NCBI GenBank assembly: GCA_001773455.1 | Contig: MEWR01000023.1 | Coordinates: forward strand, 50,485 to 96,838 | Direction: 5' to 3' | DNA: 46,354 nt | DNA from: Candidatus Abawacabacteria bacterium RBG_16_42_10 | GTDB taxonomy: Bacteria; Patescibacteriota; Gracilibacteria; RBG-16-42-10 | Shown here: positions 9,893-36,415 of the stretch, piece by piece | Numbering within the stretch: the first letter of the stretch is position 1 | How the letters are laid out: each line of letters starts with the position of its first letter | Notes under the pieces: model-generated | Seen by the model: only the letters and a program-made list of their open reading frames with translations | Told to the model about the DNA's origin: nothing | Databases searched by the model: none | Position numbers and translations under genes: made by a program

Positions 9893-9923
9893 CGGGGTGT
9901 AGGTCGCCTCAGGCGACCGCCAC
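9893..9923 (+). repeat. 31-nt unit: tRNA-Pro nt 1-10 (CGGGGTGTAG) fused to the GC-rich hairpin GGTCGCC-TCA-GGCGACC plus GCCAC; left copy of an inverted pair
   Basis: CGGGGTGTAGGTCGCCTCAGGCGACCGCCAC. The reverse complement of 10782-10812 matches it at 30 of 31 nt. Confidence 0.85.
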
Positions 9924-9936
9924 GTCTTGGGACTGA

Positions 9937-10176
9937 TTATGTCACATGTCTATCTAACCACTCTCTTCCCTTTCCACTTTTCAGGAATTTTTCTCTTTTT
10001 ATTGCTTCATTTCTTGTCTCATATTTTTCCGAATATTCCATAATAAAGGGAATTTGGAATCTAATTGACTTTGTAAATCCTGAATTATGTTCCTTTAGTC
10101 TACGAGTTAAATTGTTTGTATGTCCAATGTATCGATATCTGGTTTTCTGACTTCTTAACACATATACAAAGTACAT
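9937..10176 (-). CDS. GIY-YIG nuclease family protein (79 aa, Uri domain only)
   Basis: MYFVYVLRSQKTRYRYIGHTNNLTRRLKEHNSG...YETRNEAIKREKFLKSGKG carries the GIY/YIG, R, H and E/N motifs. The ATG lies 16 nt after the CCA end of tRNA-Pro(GGG). The 133-aa version in the ORF track reads through the tRNA and is an artefact. Confidence 0.8.
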   Translation of the reverse strand: MYFVYVLRSQKTRYRYIGHTNNLTRRLKEHNSGFTKSIRFQIPFIMEYSEKYETRNEAIKREKFLKSGKGREWLDRHVT

Positions 10177-10192
10177 AACAAAAGAAGTTATA

Positions 10193-10269
10193 TGGTCGGG
10201 GTGACAGGACTTGAACCTGCGACCTCTTGCACCCCATGCAAGCGCGCTAGCCAACTGCGCTACACCCCG
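10193..10269 (-). tRNA. tRNA-Pro (anticodon GGG), copy 1
   Basis: Minus strand: CGGGGTG-TA-GCGC-AGTTGGCTA-GCGC-G-CTTGC-ATGGGGT-GCAAG-AGGTC-GCAGG-TTCAAGT-CCTGT-CACCCCG-ACCA. Full cloverleaf, G37, encoded CCA. Confidence 0.9.
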
Positions 10270-10316
10270 GAAAACCGAAAGAAATCTATCACACAAATTA
10301 CCAGCTTGCACCCCAT

Positions 10317-10333
10317 GGTCGCCTGAGGCGACC
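10317..10333. repeat. GC-rich hairpin GGTCGCC-TGA-GGCGACC (copy 2)
   Basis: 17-nt palindrome at the junction of the two 211-bp units. On the minus strand it is followed by ATGGGGTGCAAG, the tRNA-Pro anticodon loop plus 3' stem strand. Confidence 0.85.
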
Positions 10334-10387
10334 TCCAATGTATCGATATCTGGTTTTCTGACTTCTTAACACATATACAAAGTACAT
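10334..10387 (-). pseudogene. 5' stump of the GIY-YIG gene (18 codons) created by the tandem duplication
   Basis: ATGTACTTTGTATATGTGTTAAGAAGTCAGAAAACCAGATATCGATACATTGGA is identical to the start of 9937-10176, then runs into the hairpin. Confidence 0.8.
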
Positions 10388-10403
10388 AACAAAAGAAGTT
10401 ATA

Positions 10404-10480
10404 TGGTCGGGGTGACAGGACTTGAACCTGCGACCTCTTGCACCCCATGCAAGCGCGCTAGCCAACTGCGCTACACCCCG
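10404..10480 (-). tRNA. tRNA-Pro (anticodon GGG), copy 2, identical to copy 1
   Basis: Same 77-nt sequence as 10193-10269, offset by 211 bp. Confidence 0.9.
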
Positions 10481-10515
10481 GAAAACCGAAAGAAATCTAT
10501 CACACAAATTACCAG

Positions 10516-10568
10516 CTTGCACCCCATGGTCGCCTGAGGCGACCGCTAGCCAACTGCGCTACACCCCG
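10516..10568 (-). pseudogene. Disrupted tRNA-Pro(GGG): nt 1-24, then the 17-nt hairpin in place of about 8 nt (D-stem end plus 5' anticodon-stem strand), then anticodon loop and 3' stem, then unrelated sequence
   Basis: Minus strand: CGGGGTGTAGCGCAGTTGGCTAGC-GGTCGCCTCAGGCGACC-ATGGGGTGCAAG-CTGGTAA. Preceded by the same GTTAGATT promoter-like box seen upstream of the other Pro genes. Confidence 0.8.
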
Positions 10569-10645
10569 AGACTTGGAGAATCTAACATATCTTATTCCTT
10601 GAGTTTATTCAGAGGTCGAGGTGAGGGTTATATTTTCACTGCCAT

Positions 10646-10674
10646 TCAAAACTTCGATGGCCCGCCATCCGAAG
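10646..10674 (-). terminator. Rho-independent terminator after tRNA-Pro(CGG)
   Basis: Minus strand: CTTCGGATGGC-GG-GCCATCGAAG followed by TTTTGA. Confidence 0.6.
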
Positions 10675-10687
10675 CCTTGGCGTAGGA

Positions 10688-10764
10688 TGGTCGGGGTGAT
10701 CCGATTCGAACGGACGACCTCCACGTCCCGAACGTGGCGCGCTAGCCAGCTGCGCTACACCCCG
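10688..10764 (-). tRNA. tRNA-Pro (anticodon CGG)
   Basis: CGGGGTG-TA-GCGC-AGCTGGCTA-GCGC-G-CCACG-TTCGGGA-CGTGG-AGGTC-GTCCG-TTCGAAT-CGGAT-CACCCCG-ACCA. Confidence 0.9.
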
Positions 10765-10781
10765 ATGATACCGATTAAACT

Positions 10782-10812
10782 GTGGCGGTCGCCTGAGGCG
10801 ACCTACATCCCG
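10782..10812 (-). repeat. 31-nt unit (tRNA-Pro-like nt 1-10 CGGGATGTAG + hairpin + GCCAC); right copy of the inverted pair, sitting in the leader of tRNA-Pro(CGG)
   Basis: Minus strand: CGGGATGTAGGTCGCCTCAGGCGACCGCCAC, preceded by GTTAGATTTTTGGAGGTTTTT (promoter-like box). Confidence 0.85.
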
Positions 10813-10947
10813 AAAAACCTCCAAAAATCTAACATATCTTACTCTTCACCTCCATCTGCATTTTTTCTTAAAATTTATTTAAGATGAAGATGGAGGGATA
10901 AGAATGTTGATCTAAGTGATCTGACTGGAACAATGCCAGTAAAAACT

Positions 10948-28720: not shown

Positions 28721-29509
28721 TTATGTGAGTTTTACCAAAAGACCTCTTATCTTGGTTGCTTCAAATGTTTTCTTGAAGATAACAAGAGAAATGGGGAAAT
28801 AAAATATATTAAGTATTAAGGCCCACCAAAAATATGTTGAAGAAAATGTGCTGTCTGTCAGCACTTGTCGCATGCCTTCAAATGCATGAGCAGTAGGTAA
28901 AAACCACGCGATAGACTGTAGCCATTGTGGAAGTGACGATAAGGGATAGAACACACAGGAAACCGGTTGCAATAGACCAGCAAAACTCCAGGCTAATATC
29001 TGTACTTTTGTTGTATAGCGAAGGATAAGGGCTGTTATACAAATACCAATGGCTGCAGCAAAAAATAAGAGATTTAACACATATGGTATCAGTAGTAGTA
29101 TATGGGGAAAAATGTTGAAGGAATAAAATATCAGCGCACAAAGAGAAGCAGTGAAGGATCCTATGATTATTTTAAAAATACTGATTGATGCTACTCCTGT
29201 AAGGTATTCCCACATGGTGATAGGAGTTGAAAAAATATTCAGCAGATTTCTTGACCAGAGCTCTTCGAGAAATCCTACTGCGAAGTCTCTTTGAAACGCA
29301 TAGAAAATACTCCAGAGAATAATTGCTCCCATAAGGAAATTGATAATACTTGGTCCAAAGGTATTATTGGTAGAAATATAGAAGGAGAAAAATCCCCAGA
29401 CAATGACATCAATGATTGGCCAATAGAAAACATCCATTGATCGATCAATGTTGTGACGAATATCGTAAAGATGTCGGCGCATTACCGCTTTTATTCGGTG
29501 TATTTTCAT
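28721..29509 (-). CDS. ABC-2 type transporter permease
   Basis: Six predicted TM helices. 4-nt overlap with the upstream ATPase gene. Confidence 0.75.
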   Translation of the reverse strand: MKIHRIKAVMRRHLYDIRHNIDRSMDVFYWPIIDVIVWGFFSFYISTNNTFGPSIINFLMGAIILWSIFYAFQRDFAVGFLEELWSRNLLNIFSTPITMWEYLTGVASISIFKIIIGSFTASLCALIFYSFNIFPHILLLIPYVLNLLFFAAAIGICITALILRYTTKVQILAWSFAGLLQPVSCVFYPLSSLPQWLQSIAWFLPTAHAFEGMRQVLTDSTFSSTYFWWALILNIFYFPISLVIFKKTFEATKIRGLLVKLT

Positions 29510-30249
29510 ATTGTTTTTGTATCTTTAATAACTCTAAAAAACACCTCCTCGAGAGCTGGTTCATTTCGTTCTTCGTTTAAGATAGCCTTGGTGATTTCAA
29601 TTGGTGTGCCATCAGCAATTATTTTCCCATGATTCAAAAAGACAATTCGATCGCAGATATTTTCTGTTTCAGCCATATTGTGAGAAGTATAGAGAATCGA
29701 GGTGTTCTCTTGTTCCCTGATTCGCAGTAAAATTTCTCGGACATGATGAGAAATCTCTGGATCTAGTGATGCCGTTGGTTCATCAAGCAGTAAGAGTTTT
29801 GGTTTGTTCAAGAGCGATTTGCATAATCCAACTCTGGTATTTTGTCCGGAAGAAAGTGTACCAGCTGGCTCGTCTTGTAAATCAGCGATTTCAAACATTT
29901 CCAATAATTCTTCAATCCTCTTTTTAGGATGTTCGATATTGTATATACATGCAAAAACCATGAGATTTTCAAATACGGTCAATCTATACGGAAGTGACAC
30001 ATATGGAGATGCAAAATTCATTTGCTGCAGGATTTCCTCTCGGTGTTTCCGAAAGTCTTTACCAAATATCGAAATCTCTCCTCCACTTGGGGTGATGAGA
30101 TCAAGGAGCATATGAATAGTAGTCGTTTTCCCTGCGCCATTTGGGCCAAGAAAACCCACAATCTCGCCTTTACCCATACTAAAAGAGATATTGTCTACTG
30201 CAGTAAAATCTGCAAATCGTTTTGTGAGGTTTTTTACTTCTACTACCAT
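29506..30249 (-). CDS. ABC transporter ATP-binding protein
   Basis: Walker A GPNGAGKTT, signature LSSGQ, Walker B LLLLDEPT. Confidence 0.9.
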   Translation of the reverse strand: MVVEVKNLTKRFADFTAVDNISFSMGKGEIVGFLGPNGAGKTTTIHMLLDLITPSGGEISIFGKDFRKHREEILQQMNFASPYVSLPYRLTVFENLMVFACIYNIEHPKKRIEELLEMFEIADLQDEPAGTLSSGQNTRVGLCKSLLNKPKLLLLDEPTASLDPEISHHVREILLRIREQENTSILYTSHNMAETENICDRIVFLNHGKIIADGTPIEITKAILNEERNEPALEEVFFRVIKDTKTI

Positions 30250-30305
30250 AAGAAAAAATTTGGTTGTCCCGAAGGGAGGCCATCGCCCGGGGGACTTTAG
30301 AAAAT

Positions 30306-30367
30306 TGGTTGCGGGGGTTGGACTCGAACCCTAACGATCCCGCTCAGCGGGATTATGAGCCTTGCGA
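30306..30367 (-). pseudogene. 3' two-thirds of a tRNA-fMet gene in which 8 nt (3' anticodon-stem strand plus start of the variable loop) are replaced by the hairpin TCCCGC-TGA-GCGGGA
   Basis: Minus strand: TCGCAAGGCTCATAA-TCCCGCTGAGCGGGA-TCGTTAGGGTTCGAGTCCAACCCCCGCAACCA. The intact gene has TCGCAAGGCTCATAA-CCTTGAGG-TCGTTGGTTCGAGTCCAACCCCCGCAACCA. Confidence 0.8.
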
Positions 30368-30610
30368 AAGACCAGTAATCTTATAAAACCCATTTCCTCC
30401 TTTCTGAGCTTTTAACGTGTTTTCTAATTTTCTTGCTTCAGAAAGTGAAAGAAATTTACTACACCATACCAGATTCCATGGTCCTTTAAAACGCGTCCAA
30501 ACAGATTGGTTGAAGCTGTGCTCAAACAACCGTTTTTCAATATTACTAGAGAGTCCTATATGTTTTCTACCTAAATCGTTTTTTAAAACATAAACTTGGT
30601 ATTGAGGCAT
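30353..30610 (-). CDS. GIY-YIG nuclease family protein (85 aa)
   Basis: MPQYQVYVLKNDLGRKHIGLSSNIEKRLFEH...SLSEARKLENTLKAQKG. The last five codons and the TAA stop (TCG CAA GGC TCA TAA) are encoded by the anticodon stem-loop of the tRNA-fMet remnant. Confidence 0.8.
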   Translation of the reverse strand: MPQYQVYVLKNDLGRKHIGLSSNIEKRLFEHSFNQSVWTRFKGPWNLVWCSKFLSLSEARKLENTLKAQKGGNGFYKITGLSQGS

Positions 30611-30670
30611 ATCAAAAGAAGTTTCATGCCTACCATAGCAAGTAAATAATGAAATTATTCAAACAAAAAT

Positions 30671-30746
30671 TGGTTGCGGGGGTTGGACTCGAACCAACGA
30701 CCTCAAGGTTATGAGCCTTGCGAGCTGCCAACTGCTCTACCCCGCG
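30671..30746 (-). tRNA. tRNA-fMet (initiator, anticodon CAT)
   Basis: CGCGGGG-TA-GAGC-AGTTGGCA-GCTC-G-CAAGG-CTCATAA-CCTTG-AGGTC-GTTGG-TTCGAGT-CCAAC-CCCCGCA-ACCA. The C1/A72 mismatch is typical of bacterial initiator tRNA. Confidence 0.85.
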
Positions 30747-30875
30747 CCGAAAAATATTGGATTTTCAAGGCACGTAAGGATTCTACTCACTTTTTATATT
30801 TGTGCAACCTTTTTTGCGCTACCTTACATCGGAAAGATATGTCCTATATAATCGCGAGTGATTTTAACTTTTTAT

Positions 30876-31406
30876 ATGACCAATCCTCATCTCCATGAAG
30901 TGGTGATTACAGCTATCATCGTCAAAGACGATAAGTATTTGATCACTCGTAGGGTGAAAACAAAAAAACGTTTTCCGGGTATGTGGACTGTCCCAGGGGG
31001 GAAATTAGAGGTCGACGATTACAAAAAGTTACCTAAGGATACCAAAGAATATTGGTACAATGTATTAGAAAAAACCTTGCGTAGGGAAGTAAGCGAAGAA
31101 GTTGGTATTGATATCGATAATATTGAGTATGTGACCAGCTTGGCGACGGTTCATGCTGATGGAGCACCTTCTCTCGTTATTTCTTGCATGGCAGATTATG
31201 CTTCTGGGGAAATCACTTTGCAGCCTGAAGAAACTGATGAATTTGCTTGGGTTGATATCGAAGAAGCCAAGAAATATGACTTGATCGATGGTATTTTGGA
31301 TGAACTGGTTGTTGCCGATAACAAACGTAAGGGCATAAGAGTGAAATGGCAGAAAGTAGTGCAGACTGAGGTTACTATTCCCCAGGACGCTAAAGTAGCA
31401 AGATAA
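30876..31406 (+). CDS. Nudix hydrolase
   Basis: GGKLEVDD...TLRREVSEEVGIDI Nudix box. Confidence 0.7.
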   Translation: MTNPHLHEVVITAIIVKDDKYLITRRVKTKKRFPGMWTVPGGKLEVDDYKKLPKDTKEYWYNVLEKTLRREVSEEVGIDIDNIEYVTSLATVHADGAPSLVISCMADYASGEITLQPEETDEFAWVDIEEAKKYDLIDGILDELVVADNKRKGIRVKWQKVVQTEVTIPQDAKVAR

Positions 31407-31461
31407 AAACATTGCAGTGTTCCTAGGACACGATATAGTACTGAAGATCTAATCGATTTTT

Positions 31462-31863
31462 ATGCATTTAAAACTCATGAGTGTTGTTAGTGTGAGCTTT
31501 TTGCTTCTTGCTTGCGATTATTCAGCAACTCAACAAACTACCCCAGTCCCTCAGAGCACAGCTAAAGCTGATGTTACTATTGAAATTACAAATGATGGCT
31601 TCAACCCAGCGAGTATTACTATCAACAAAGGACAAACTGTTGAATTTGTAAACCGTGATTCAGCGCTTCATTGGCCAGCTTCAGCTATGCACCCTACCCA
31701 TTCGGAGTACCCAACGACCGGAGGATGTGTTGGCAGTTCATTTGATGCCTGCCATGGTTTACAAAATGGAGAGAAATTTGTTTTCACATTTGATCAAATC
31801 GGTACGTGGAAATATCATGATCATTTGAATATTACGAAATTTGGCAGTATTGAAGTAAAATAA
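31462..31863 (+). CDS. Cupredoxin-fold lipoprotein (plastocyanin-like, without the canonical Cys-His-Met site)
   Basis: Lipobox LLLACD. GFNPASITINKGQTVEFVNRD...WKYHDHLNITKFGSIEV resembles the C-terminal domain of 11546-12412. Confidence 0.65.
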   Translation: MHLKLMSVVSVSFLLLACDYSATQQTTPVPQSTAKADVTIEITNDGFNPASITINKGQTVEFVNRDSALHWPASAMHPTHSEYPTTGGCVGSSFDACHGLQNGEKFVFTFDQIGTWKYHDHLNITKFGSIEVK

Positions 31864-36339: not shown

Positions 36340-36415
36340 GGGCCCATAGCTCAGTGGTTAGAGCAGCTCGCTCATAACGAGTTGGTCCCTGGTTCAAGTC
36401 CAGGTGGGCCCACCA
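36340..36415 (+). tRNA. tRNA with anticodon CAT (elongator Met, or Ile2 if lysidine-modified)
   Basis: GGGCCCA-TA-GCTC-AGTGGTTA-GAGC-A-GCTCG-CTCATAA-CGAGT-TGGTC-CCTGG-TTCAAGT-CCAGG-TGGGCCC-ACCA. Confidence 0.85.

Follow-up and report, generated by a model that had tools for sequence, protein, structure and literature searches.

Why does a nuclease gene lie between an intact initiator tRNA gene and a broken second copy of the same tRNA? The question is raised by a 46,354-nucleotide (nt) stretch of DNA from Candidatus Abawacabacteria bacterium RBG_16_42_10 (contig MEWR01000023.1, positions 50,485 to 96,838), which was analyzed at its full length and is called the window below. On its minus strand, a tRNA-fMet gene (30746-30671) is followed by a 60-nt spacer, a GIY-YIG open reading frame (ORF; 30610-30353), a hairpin, and the remnant of a second tRNA-fMet. 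This order had been described in an earlier inspection of the letters alone (the sequence-only reading), and all of its elements were recovered at these positions. We propose, with moderate confidence, that they belong to a minimal, free-standing selfish cassette of the homing endonuclease type, which sits in the 3' trailer of the initiator tRNA gene.

The functional tRNA-fMet upstream of the cassette is untouched. ARAGORN called it as an intact tRNA (30671-30746, minus strand) with the anticodon CAT and an encoded CCA, and Rfam matched it with 64.1 bits (expectation value [E] = 4e-13). A C1×A72 mismatch marks it as the initiator; in the other CAT tRNA of the window (36340-36415), the 1-72 end is paired, which shows that this one is not an initiator. 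The nuclease ORF (30353-30610, minus strand) has 85 codons plus a stop codon and matches Pfam PF01541 (E = 8.5e-9); it is the sole ORF of the unit with a family match. Its last four codons and stop, TCG CAA GGC TCA TAA, are a copy of tRNA positions 24-38 (TCGCAAGGCTCATAA) and make up the first part of the remnant (30353-30367, minus strand), an exact 15-nt repeat of 30709-30723. Thus, the stop codon is the TAA of a second anticodon loop, as the sequence-only reading had claimed.

The hairpin A-TCCCGC-TGA-GCGGGA-T (30337-30353, minus strand) then stands in place of tRNA positions 39-46 (CCTTGAGG), a substitution that was also confirmed. Its stem has 7 base pairs (bp) once the flanking A and T are included, and it is predicted to form in an RNA fold, directly 3' of the nuclease stop codon. 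The second part of the remnant (30301-30336, minus strand) repeats the end of the tRNA and contains the T arm, the acceptor 3' strand, CCA, and an ATTTT flank. All of these pieces had been listed before and are present, but the T arm is not intact, having a 2-nt insertion in the 5' strand of its stem (TCGTTAGGG versus TCGTTGG). A 30-nt exact repeat (30301-30330 and 30666-30695) covers the T loop, the T-stem 3' strand, the acceptor 3' strand, CCA, and ATTTT; its chance expectation in 46 kb is about 1e-9. This repeat and the 15-nt one were both exact, as previously described. Repeat spacing and alignment define one period of 365 bp (30301-30665, minus strand), the unit that is absent from the empty sites of relatives.

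Two candidate roles for the remnant region were rejected. As a functional or alternative tRNA, it is missing positions 1-23, with the 5' acceptor strand and most of the D arm, as well as the 3' strand of the anticodon stem, and neither ARAGORN nor Rfam (E up to 10) called a tRNA or another RNA family in it. A group I intron was discarded because the functional tRNA is continuous and Rfam detected no intron family at E up to 10; in the region 29500-31500, the same Rfam search returned the intact tRNA only, leaving the spacer and the remnant blank. Group I introns with homing endonucleases occur in tRNA anticodon loops, for example, in cyanobacterial tRNA-fMet, and they likewise tie a selfish nuclease to the anticodon-loop region of this tRNA. 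In the cassette, however, the functional tRNA is uninterrupted, Intron_gpI has no match at E up to 10, and it is a dead copy that contains the anticodon loop in question.

The ABC ATPase gene that adjoins the cassette (29509-30249), whose product is 100% identical to a protein recorded for Candidatus Abawacabacteria RBG_16_42_10, was used to locate empty sites. Three related, Abawacabacteria-like contigs (L141, L137, and L138), with ATPases 88%, 85%, and 79% identical to that of the window, carry tRNA-fMet followed by the ATPase gene, without nuclease gene or remnant. The distances from the tRNA end to the ATPase start are 10 nt in L141, 78 nt in L137, and 61 nt in L138, and the tRNA is identical to that of the window in L137, in L141, and in the stretch available of L138. 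The sequence after the tRNA in L137 (ATTTAGTTAATGTTCCCCGGGCCGAAGGCCTCCC...CAACCAATTTTTTCTAATGG) and the window sequence behind the remnant are homologous; therefore, the occupied and empty states differ by exactly one 365-bp period. The occupied state is also found in five near-identical environmental contigs (L001-L005). The cassette is thus a discrete 365-bp unit of gain and loss, and the three empty relatives support the earlier proposal that a cassette of about 365 bp entered a tRNA-fMet gene and left a functional copy. The polymorphism is that of a free-standing homing gene: the gene lies outside introns and inteins, its locus is fixed, and relatives carry either an occupied or an empty allele. 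Because recombination between the repeats would restore a perfect empty site, the choice between gain and loss rests on parsimony, given the three empty relatives. An exact-tRNA pattern scan of a metagenome collection for empty sites returned only the window's own contig and the unrelated L129. In this G+C-rich contig, the tRNA (61-138) differs from the tRNA-fMet of the window in a single letter, C for T at position 33 of the anticodon loop (CCCATAA), and it is followed by a plain terminator and no cassette.

Direct repeats of a tRNA 3' part, together with a regenerated tRNA, are the classical signature of tRNA-targeting islands, and the sequence-only reading had compared the repeats with attL and attR. 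The comparison held insofar as the tRNA 3' part is directly repeated and accompanied by an intact tRNA; beyond that, the resemblance is formal only. Phages and integrative and conjugative elements that target tRNA genes also keep the functional tRNA, and their inserts are bounded by such a repeat. Unlike them, the cassette is only 365 bp long and has no recombinase, its distal repeat is interrupted by the hairpin, and its boundaries vary between lineages instead of following a fixed core. It is extremely improbable that the locus is a decayed integrase island, with true attL and attR sites and the nuclease gene as the only cargo left. The exact 30-nt and 15-nt repeats with the intact tRNA at one end would fit such an origin, and in a related tRNA-Cys cassette (L134, see below), a gene for a phage integrase is located about 500 bp farther downstream, on the far side of a tRNA-Leu. 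However, no integrase or other recombinase was found in or beside the unit, where the neighbors are a NUDIX hydrolase and an ABC transporter, a result that agrees with the earlier description, nor was one found in or near the units of L001-L008. In addition, dozens of species share a small unit of consistent size (329-365 bp where measured) that always includes the nuclease, exactly this 365-bp unit separates occupied from empty sites, and the hairpin sits inside the repeat.

The same architecture recurs outside the window. A protein search returned only four homologue clusters (L001-L005, L006, L007, and L008), found without reference to the hairpin, and all four show tRNA-fMet, then the nuclease gene, then a hairpin-bearing remnant. 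L006 (59% identity) is sited in an unrelated neighborhood, between a glutaredoxin gene and exbB/exbD/tonB. In L006 and L007, the ORF ends with GGC TCA TAA and is followed by TCCCGC-loop-GCGGGA and the host's own T arm and acceptor strand. In L008, the remnant is shortened and the hairpin is a variant, CCCCGCC-GAG-GCGGGG.

The junction was also sought by a scan of one genome per GTDB species (596 gigabases) with the pattern CTCATAAYCCCGC-N2-8-GCGGGR. This yielded at least 142 matches at no fewer than 120 species-genome loci; the counts that follow apply to the matches listed. tRNA T-arm or acceptor sequence lies behind the hairpin in 95 of the 142. The 47 matches without a tRNA signature were set aside as chance, about 120 chance matches being expected under uniform composition; three of these (L033, L071, and L103) are located in short-repeat arrays (GATTTCATC-N-hairpin) of Clostridia metagenome-assembled genomes and have no relation to tRNA. 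A family nuclease gene adjoins 77 of the 95 tRNA-derived remnants. Its ORF stops exactly in the anticodon TAA in 54, ends up to 130 nt upstream or up to 40 nt downstream in 10, and lies behind the remnant in 13; 14 remnants are solo, and 4 are at a contig edge. The hosts are mostly Verrucomicrobiota, with seven or more other phyla. They include Victivallales, Acidobacteriota, Bacteroidota, Armatimonadota, KSB1, Calditrichota, and Fibrobacterota, and among the Patescibacteria Moraniibacteriota, Saccharibacteria, and Peribacteria. A search for the junction at tRNA-fMet in other genomes, suggested by the sequence-only reading, thus found it across many phyla, other Patescibacteria included.

Across the scanned remnants, the hairpin replaces positions 39-46 whatever the host sequence is (CCTGAAGG, CCCAAAGG, CCTTGAGG, or CCATCAGG), and its loop is free (2-8 nt, mostly 3-4 nt). 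As the scan pattern fixed the stem TCCCGC/GCGGGA, independent proof of stem constancy comes from L006 and L007 only. These data show that the disrupting hairpin is a conserved part of the cassette family and not an accident.

Full-length tRNA-fMet copies with the hairpin in place of positions 39-46 are present in L016 (209-291 of the oriented segment), L035, L048, L058, and L099. ARAGORN calls the pseudo-tRNAs of L016 and L035 as tRNA-Met genes of 82-83 nt, which is an annotation trap.

Which kind of nuclease is encoded? The PF01541 match (36 bits, with a cut-off of 22.6) places the protein in the GIY-YIG superfamily. A profile search of the PDB returned 1zg2 (BH0048, E = 2e-8), 1ywl (EF2693), and SLX1 chains, and the top seven Foldseek hits of an AlphaFold model (predicted local distance difference test score of 88) were from the same UPF0213/Slx1 group. 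The 85 amino acids correspond to the catalytic domain alone, and the model shows the three-stranded-sheet/helix core only. The catalytic set is conserved in 71 distinct family ORFs (Y7 and Y17 in 69 each, R27 and E63 in all, and H31 in 70), and so is G19 (69-71 of 71). After E63, none of the C-terminal positions in the 71 ORFs is a conserved Asn, as in the Slx1 branch, which was defined by a minimal standalone domain without a conserved C-terminal Asn (PMC1564403). Judged by sequence and predicted fold, the nuclease is a member of the UPF0213/Slx1 clade. Its best matches in both respects, the UPF0213 or bacterial Slx1-like proteins (BH0048, EF2693, and the Escherichia coli YhbQ group), also consist of the minimal domain with neither an auxiliary domain nor a conserved C-terminal Asn. 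No function is assigned to this family, for which a role in repair and vertical inheritance were predicted (PMC1564403). For close pairs of family ORFs, the ratio of nonsynonymous to synonymous substitution rates (dN/dS) is 0.2-0.35; by this measure, the gene is conserved and under purifying selection across the family.

A profile search of 1.84 billion representatives returned about 539 clusters at 50% identity with E ≤ 1e-10. The nearest relatives of the window protein belong to Opitutaceae and other Verrucomicrobiota (66-55% identity) and not to other Patescibacteria, which suggests horizontal spread. NCBIfam, PADLOC, and PHROGs contain no family matching the fMet nuclease and thus provide no link to a known defense system or phage protein family. 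There was also no tblastn match in 50,697 phage records and 72,556 plasmids and no match to the junction pattern in IMG/VR; hence, there is no evidence for a plasmid or viral vector. The window contains no second copy of the fMet nuclease, and its other GIY-YIG gene, linked to tRNA-Pro, is only distantly related.

How would such a cassette spread? According to the homing model, the nuclease would be co-transcribed from the tRNA promoter, and tRNA 3' processing would release its message, which would end at the hairpin. The enzyme is predicted to break an unoccupied or intact tRNA-fMet gene, and the break would be mended by homologous recombination with a cassette-bearing copy. In this repair, the whole tRNA would serve as the left arm and the T arm and acceptor segment of the remnant as the right arm, with everything between them copied in. 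The hairpin would strip tRNA sequence from the spare copy, making it a poor cleavage target and denying a continuous 76-bp recombination partner; this loss of target and homology would protect the cassette from excision. If the resident intact tRNA were cut again and again and repaired unequally, the observed tandem arrays and inversions could result.

The cassettes show footprints of recombination. Remnant positions 47-76 equal those of the local intact tRNA in most genomes, while T stems vary between genomes. The identity continues past CCA for 0-8 nt and sometimes for more than 25 nt; upstream of CTCATAA, it extends over 0-11 nt, or over 22-29 nt where a full-length pseudo-tRNA is present. 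A fixed target-site duplication is ruled out by these varying repeat boundaries. L100 has a chimeric T arm (GCTGG...CCTAC versus GTAGG...CCTAC in the intact tRNA), and L022 and L027 have two T-stem pairings on their two copies, the stem of each copy being fully complementary in L022. Such chimeric and allelic T arms are as expected if crossovers occurred inside the right arm.

Rearrangements of the kind that break-induced recombination typically leaves were seen as well. Tandem copies were found in 7 of 68 loci. In L018 (2200-4400), tRNA-fMet heads an array of nuclease-remnant units, five of them intact with 329 bp each and one truncated; these differ by a few substitutions, which shows that the array is not an assembly artefact. 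Furthermore, a module of about 425 bp comprising putative promoter, tRNA, nuclease gene, and remnant is inverted between syntenic Verrucomicrobia (L006 and L072 versus L125 and L087). It lies at 2878-3300 in L006, 6332-6754 in L125, and 2763-3137 in L087, with the same flanks (glutaredoxin gene and exbB), and no inverted repeats are obvious at the breakpoints.

SegB of T-even phages, a free-standing GIY-YIG homing endonuclease that cuts in tRNA genes (PMC2330249), is the best experimental analogue of the proposed cycle. It is required for tandem tRNA-segB amplification, and truncation of its C-terminal portion abolishes toxicity (PMC13096335). The two systems would share (i) a GIY-YIG gene that stands free beside tRNA genes, with its target in tRNA genes, (ii) spread and rearrangement via homologous recombination, and (iii) tandem tRNA-nuclease units formed via short homology of the tRNA and the nuclease 3' end. 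In contrast to the chromosomal cassette protein, an 85-amino-acid catalytic domain of the Slx1/UPF0213 branch, SegB is phage-borne and belongs to the I-TevI/Seg (UvrC-side) branch. Moreover, SegB loci have no counterpart of the partial tRNA duplication with its conserved hairpin.

A parallel arrangement exists in the window at tRNA-Pro. The second, distantly related GIY-YIG gene (10173-9938, minus strand; 78 amino acids) lies behind a tRNA-Pro(GGG) in a module (9900-10830, minus strand) that contains tRNA-Pro(CGG), two copies of tRNA-Pro(GGG), and a 5' tRNA-Pro fragment to which a hairpin is fused. A 211-bp tandem duplication spans tRNA-Pro(GGG) and the first 60 nt or so of the nuclease ORF. 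The hairpin GGTCGCC-TSA-GGCGACC occurs four times (9902-9918, 10317-10333, 10528-10544, and 10787-10803) and nowhere else in the window; inverted copies of the 5' end of tRNA-Pro flank the outermost two. Three of the four homologues that were looked up show the same cassette logic. In L131, the order is tRNA-Pro, nuclease gene, and a pseudo-tRNA-Pro in which GTCGCC-TTA-GGCGAC stands for the anticodon-stem 5' strand, with more hairpins in the T loop. L133 has the mirror order, with the 5' part of a pseudo-tRNA-Pro carrying two hairpins, then the nuclease gene, whose stop codon is in the D loop of the intact tRNA. In L134 (Bacteroidota), tRNA-Cys is followed by the nuclease gene and a pseudo-tRNA-Cys whose D and anticodon loops hold two CACCCGCC-NNN-GGCGGG hairpins.

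Additional hairpins were also observed in tRNA-fMet remnants. An extra TCCCGC/GCGGGA hairpin is present in the T loop of the same pseudo-tRNA-fMet in L022, L038, L073, L079, and L117, and 5' of the anticodon stem, within the C-terminal codons of the nuclease, in L122. Each of these has its own loop and replaces another part of the tRNA. Longer T-loop insertions with other hairpins are found in L045, L032, L060, and L095.

Could the gene simply be a host gene? A repair or maintenance gene that is by chance transcribed together with tRNA genes may have been caught in a passive segmental duplication, with the remnant as a by-product and transcript end and with gain and loss by ordinary recombination between tRNA repeats. 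The purifying selection, the host-like composition, and the syntenic retention in one verrucomicrobial clade are compatible with this, as are family members that have no adjoining tRNA (L135/L136) and the prediction that prokaryotic Slx1-like proteins are repair factors, mostly vertically inherited (PMC1564403). A mere host gene would not, however, be expected to occur so patchily, with the three closest relatives empty, or to show an identical composite junction in eight or more phyla and the same design at three tRNA species. The tandem arrays, which are of the nuclease gene and not of the tRNA, the solo and decayed remnants, and the nearest protein relatives in another phylum also argue against it, and we consider this explanation distinctly unlikely.

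The constancy of the hairpin raises the question of whether it is itself the substrate. The Slx1-like nuclease would then cut the GC hairpin as a cruciform or single strand, and the two would form a transposon-like pair instead of a classical homing system. Breaks at the hairpin would drive copying, inversion, and amplification, and new hairpins would be written into the loops of the spare tRNA. Slx1 cleaves branched and stem-loop DNA, and the cassette protein clusters with Slx1. In the protein-found L006 and L007, the stem is constant (TCCCGC/GCGGGA) and the loop free; all 95 remnants listed carry the stem, although the scan pattern demanded it. One pseudo-tRNA bears the hairpin at two or three positions in L022, L038, L073, L079, L117, and L122; the tRNA-Pro and tRNA-Cys cassettes have different cognate hairpins, always in the disabled copy. 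TCCCGC/GCGGGA occurs once in the 46-kb window, where neither the fMet nor the Pro hairpin is found outside its cassette, and the verrucomicrobial module is inverted without visible terminal inverted repeats. Several features do not fit: there is no target-site duplication, the hairpin replaces 6-8 nt and is not a clean insertion, a break in the donor's own remnant would favor loss over spread, and insertion mediated by a GIY-YIG enzyme has no known biochemical precedent. On balance, a hairpin-directed element is unlikely.

Short GC-rich hairpins that recur in RNA genes, often in loops, are also known from Rickettsia palindromic elements, the GC clusters of yeast mitochondria, and the multiple short introns in archaeal tRNA loops, to which the cassette hairpins bear a resemblance only. 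In contrast to these, the cassette hairpins (15-19 nt) replace 6-8 nt, cannot be spliced back into a tRNA, and are found only in disabled tRNA copies beside a cognate nuclease gene.

A function at the RNA level was considered as well. The remnant might serve the nuclease mRNA or the tRNA precursor as a functional 3' element, with the hairpin perhaps stabilizing this end; alternatively, a tRNA-fMet minihelix for RNase P, RNase Z, or the CCA enzyme might form from GCGGGA, the T arm, and CCCCGCA-ACCA. The hairpin does appear in the predicted fold directly behind the stop codon, its stem equals acceptor-stem positions 2-6/67-71 of tRNA-fMet, and in most genomes, the T arm and acceptor 3' strand are identical to their counterparts in the functional tRNA. 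But the region gains no folding stability over shuffled sequence (z = 0.04), many remnants, including that of the window, have a T loop replaced by a hairpin or a mutated T stem, and no Rfam family matches. The minihelix or permuted-tRNA interpretation was not adopted because the local hairpin, which competes with it, wins the fold, shuffled sequences are as stable, and at tRNA-Pro and tRNA-Cys, the hairpins do not correspond to the acceptor stem. We regard an RNA-level device of either kind as very unlikely.

The homing-type cassette has its own difficulties. Several observations count against it. The 85-amino-acid protein contains no DNA-binding module for a long target such as that of I-TevI and the Seg proteins, and its closest characterized relative, Slx1, is structure specific and not sequence specific. 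The resident intact tRNA beside the cassette remains a potential target. Homing offers no explanation for one hairpin being written at several sites of a disabled copy, and the replaced segment 39-46 differs from host to host. The base composition of the cassette is host-like, and the species of one verrucomicrobial clade have it in synteny at a synonymous divergence (dS) of up to about 1.3, as if it had long been retained by vertical inheritance. Finally, codon 17 of the window allele (30560-30562) is CAT (His), while it is TAT (Tyr) in the otherwise identical L001-L005, whose proteins are 99% identical to that of the window. Position 17 is the catalytic tyrosine of the YIG motif, and residue 32 is Ser in the window and Asn in 67 of the 71 family ORFs. 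The window allele (Y17H, S32) may thus be inactive or impaired.

If the homing-type reading is right, what would follow? A 329-365 bp complete unit would, to our knowledge, rank among the smallest autonomous genetic parasites. Its target would be the most conserved single tRNA of bacteria, also in the reduced genomes of Patescibacteria. For two decades, bacterial standalone Slx1-like (UPF0213/YhbQ-type) nucleases have remained orphans of structural genomics, and "DNA repair?" is the label that they usually receive. The window locus and at least 68 related species-genome loci give this large subfamily a testable role, that of selfish tRNA-bound cassettes. Homing-type behavior would be extended to the Slx1 branch; a phylogenomic survey of the GIY-YIG superfamily had placed the selfish members on the other branch (PMC1564403). 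In the literature searched, no tRNA-linked UPF0213 cassettes, mobility of UPF0213 genes, or hairpin-scarred pseudo-tRNAs are described. The loci would also provide natural examples of chromosomal tandem amplification and inversion driven by a nuclease, and the recurrent hairpin-in-loop scars, a DNA-level phenomenon, could reveal a new repair or insertion mechanism. More tentatively, and with considerable doubt, we suggest that Slx1/UPF0213 nucleases and their cognate GC hairpins make up an unrecognized class of minimal mobile elements of a few hundred bp that parasitize tRNA genes. Such elements would make the host carry a spare copy of their target tRNA and write hairpins into its D loop, anticodon arm, or T loop, thereby immunizing the copy and anchoring the element. 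The chemistry and logic of this class would differ from those of classical homing endonucleases and known transposons.

The remaining features of the locus concern its expression and borders. A block TTGCAC-16 nt-TAGAAT (30780-30807, minus strand) is the putative promoter of the tRNA-fMet/nuclease transcript. It is kept upstream of the tRNA in relatives, as GGTTGCA(C/G)AAATATAAAAAGTGAGTA(G/A)AATCCTTACGTG in the empty-site contigs L137 and L141, and was not flagged by a promoter consensus scan. The A+T-rich spacer between the tRNA and the nuclease start codon (30611-30670, minus strand; 60 nt) has no recognizable promoter or Shine-Dalgarno sequence of its own; in 40 related cassettes, this distance is 0-135 nt (median, 31 nt). 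In L022 and L122, a terminator-like hairpin, AACCCCGCC-N4-GGCGGGG-TTTTTT, with a stem resembling that of the cassette hairpin, lies between tRNA-fMet and the nuclease gene; thus, co-transcription of the two may not hold in all lineages. On the other side of the cassette, the host flank (30253-30295, minus strand), a terminator-like hairpin, GTCCC...GGGAC, with AACCAAATTTTTT behind it, closely precedes the start of the ABC ATPase gene (30249).

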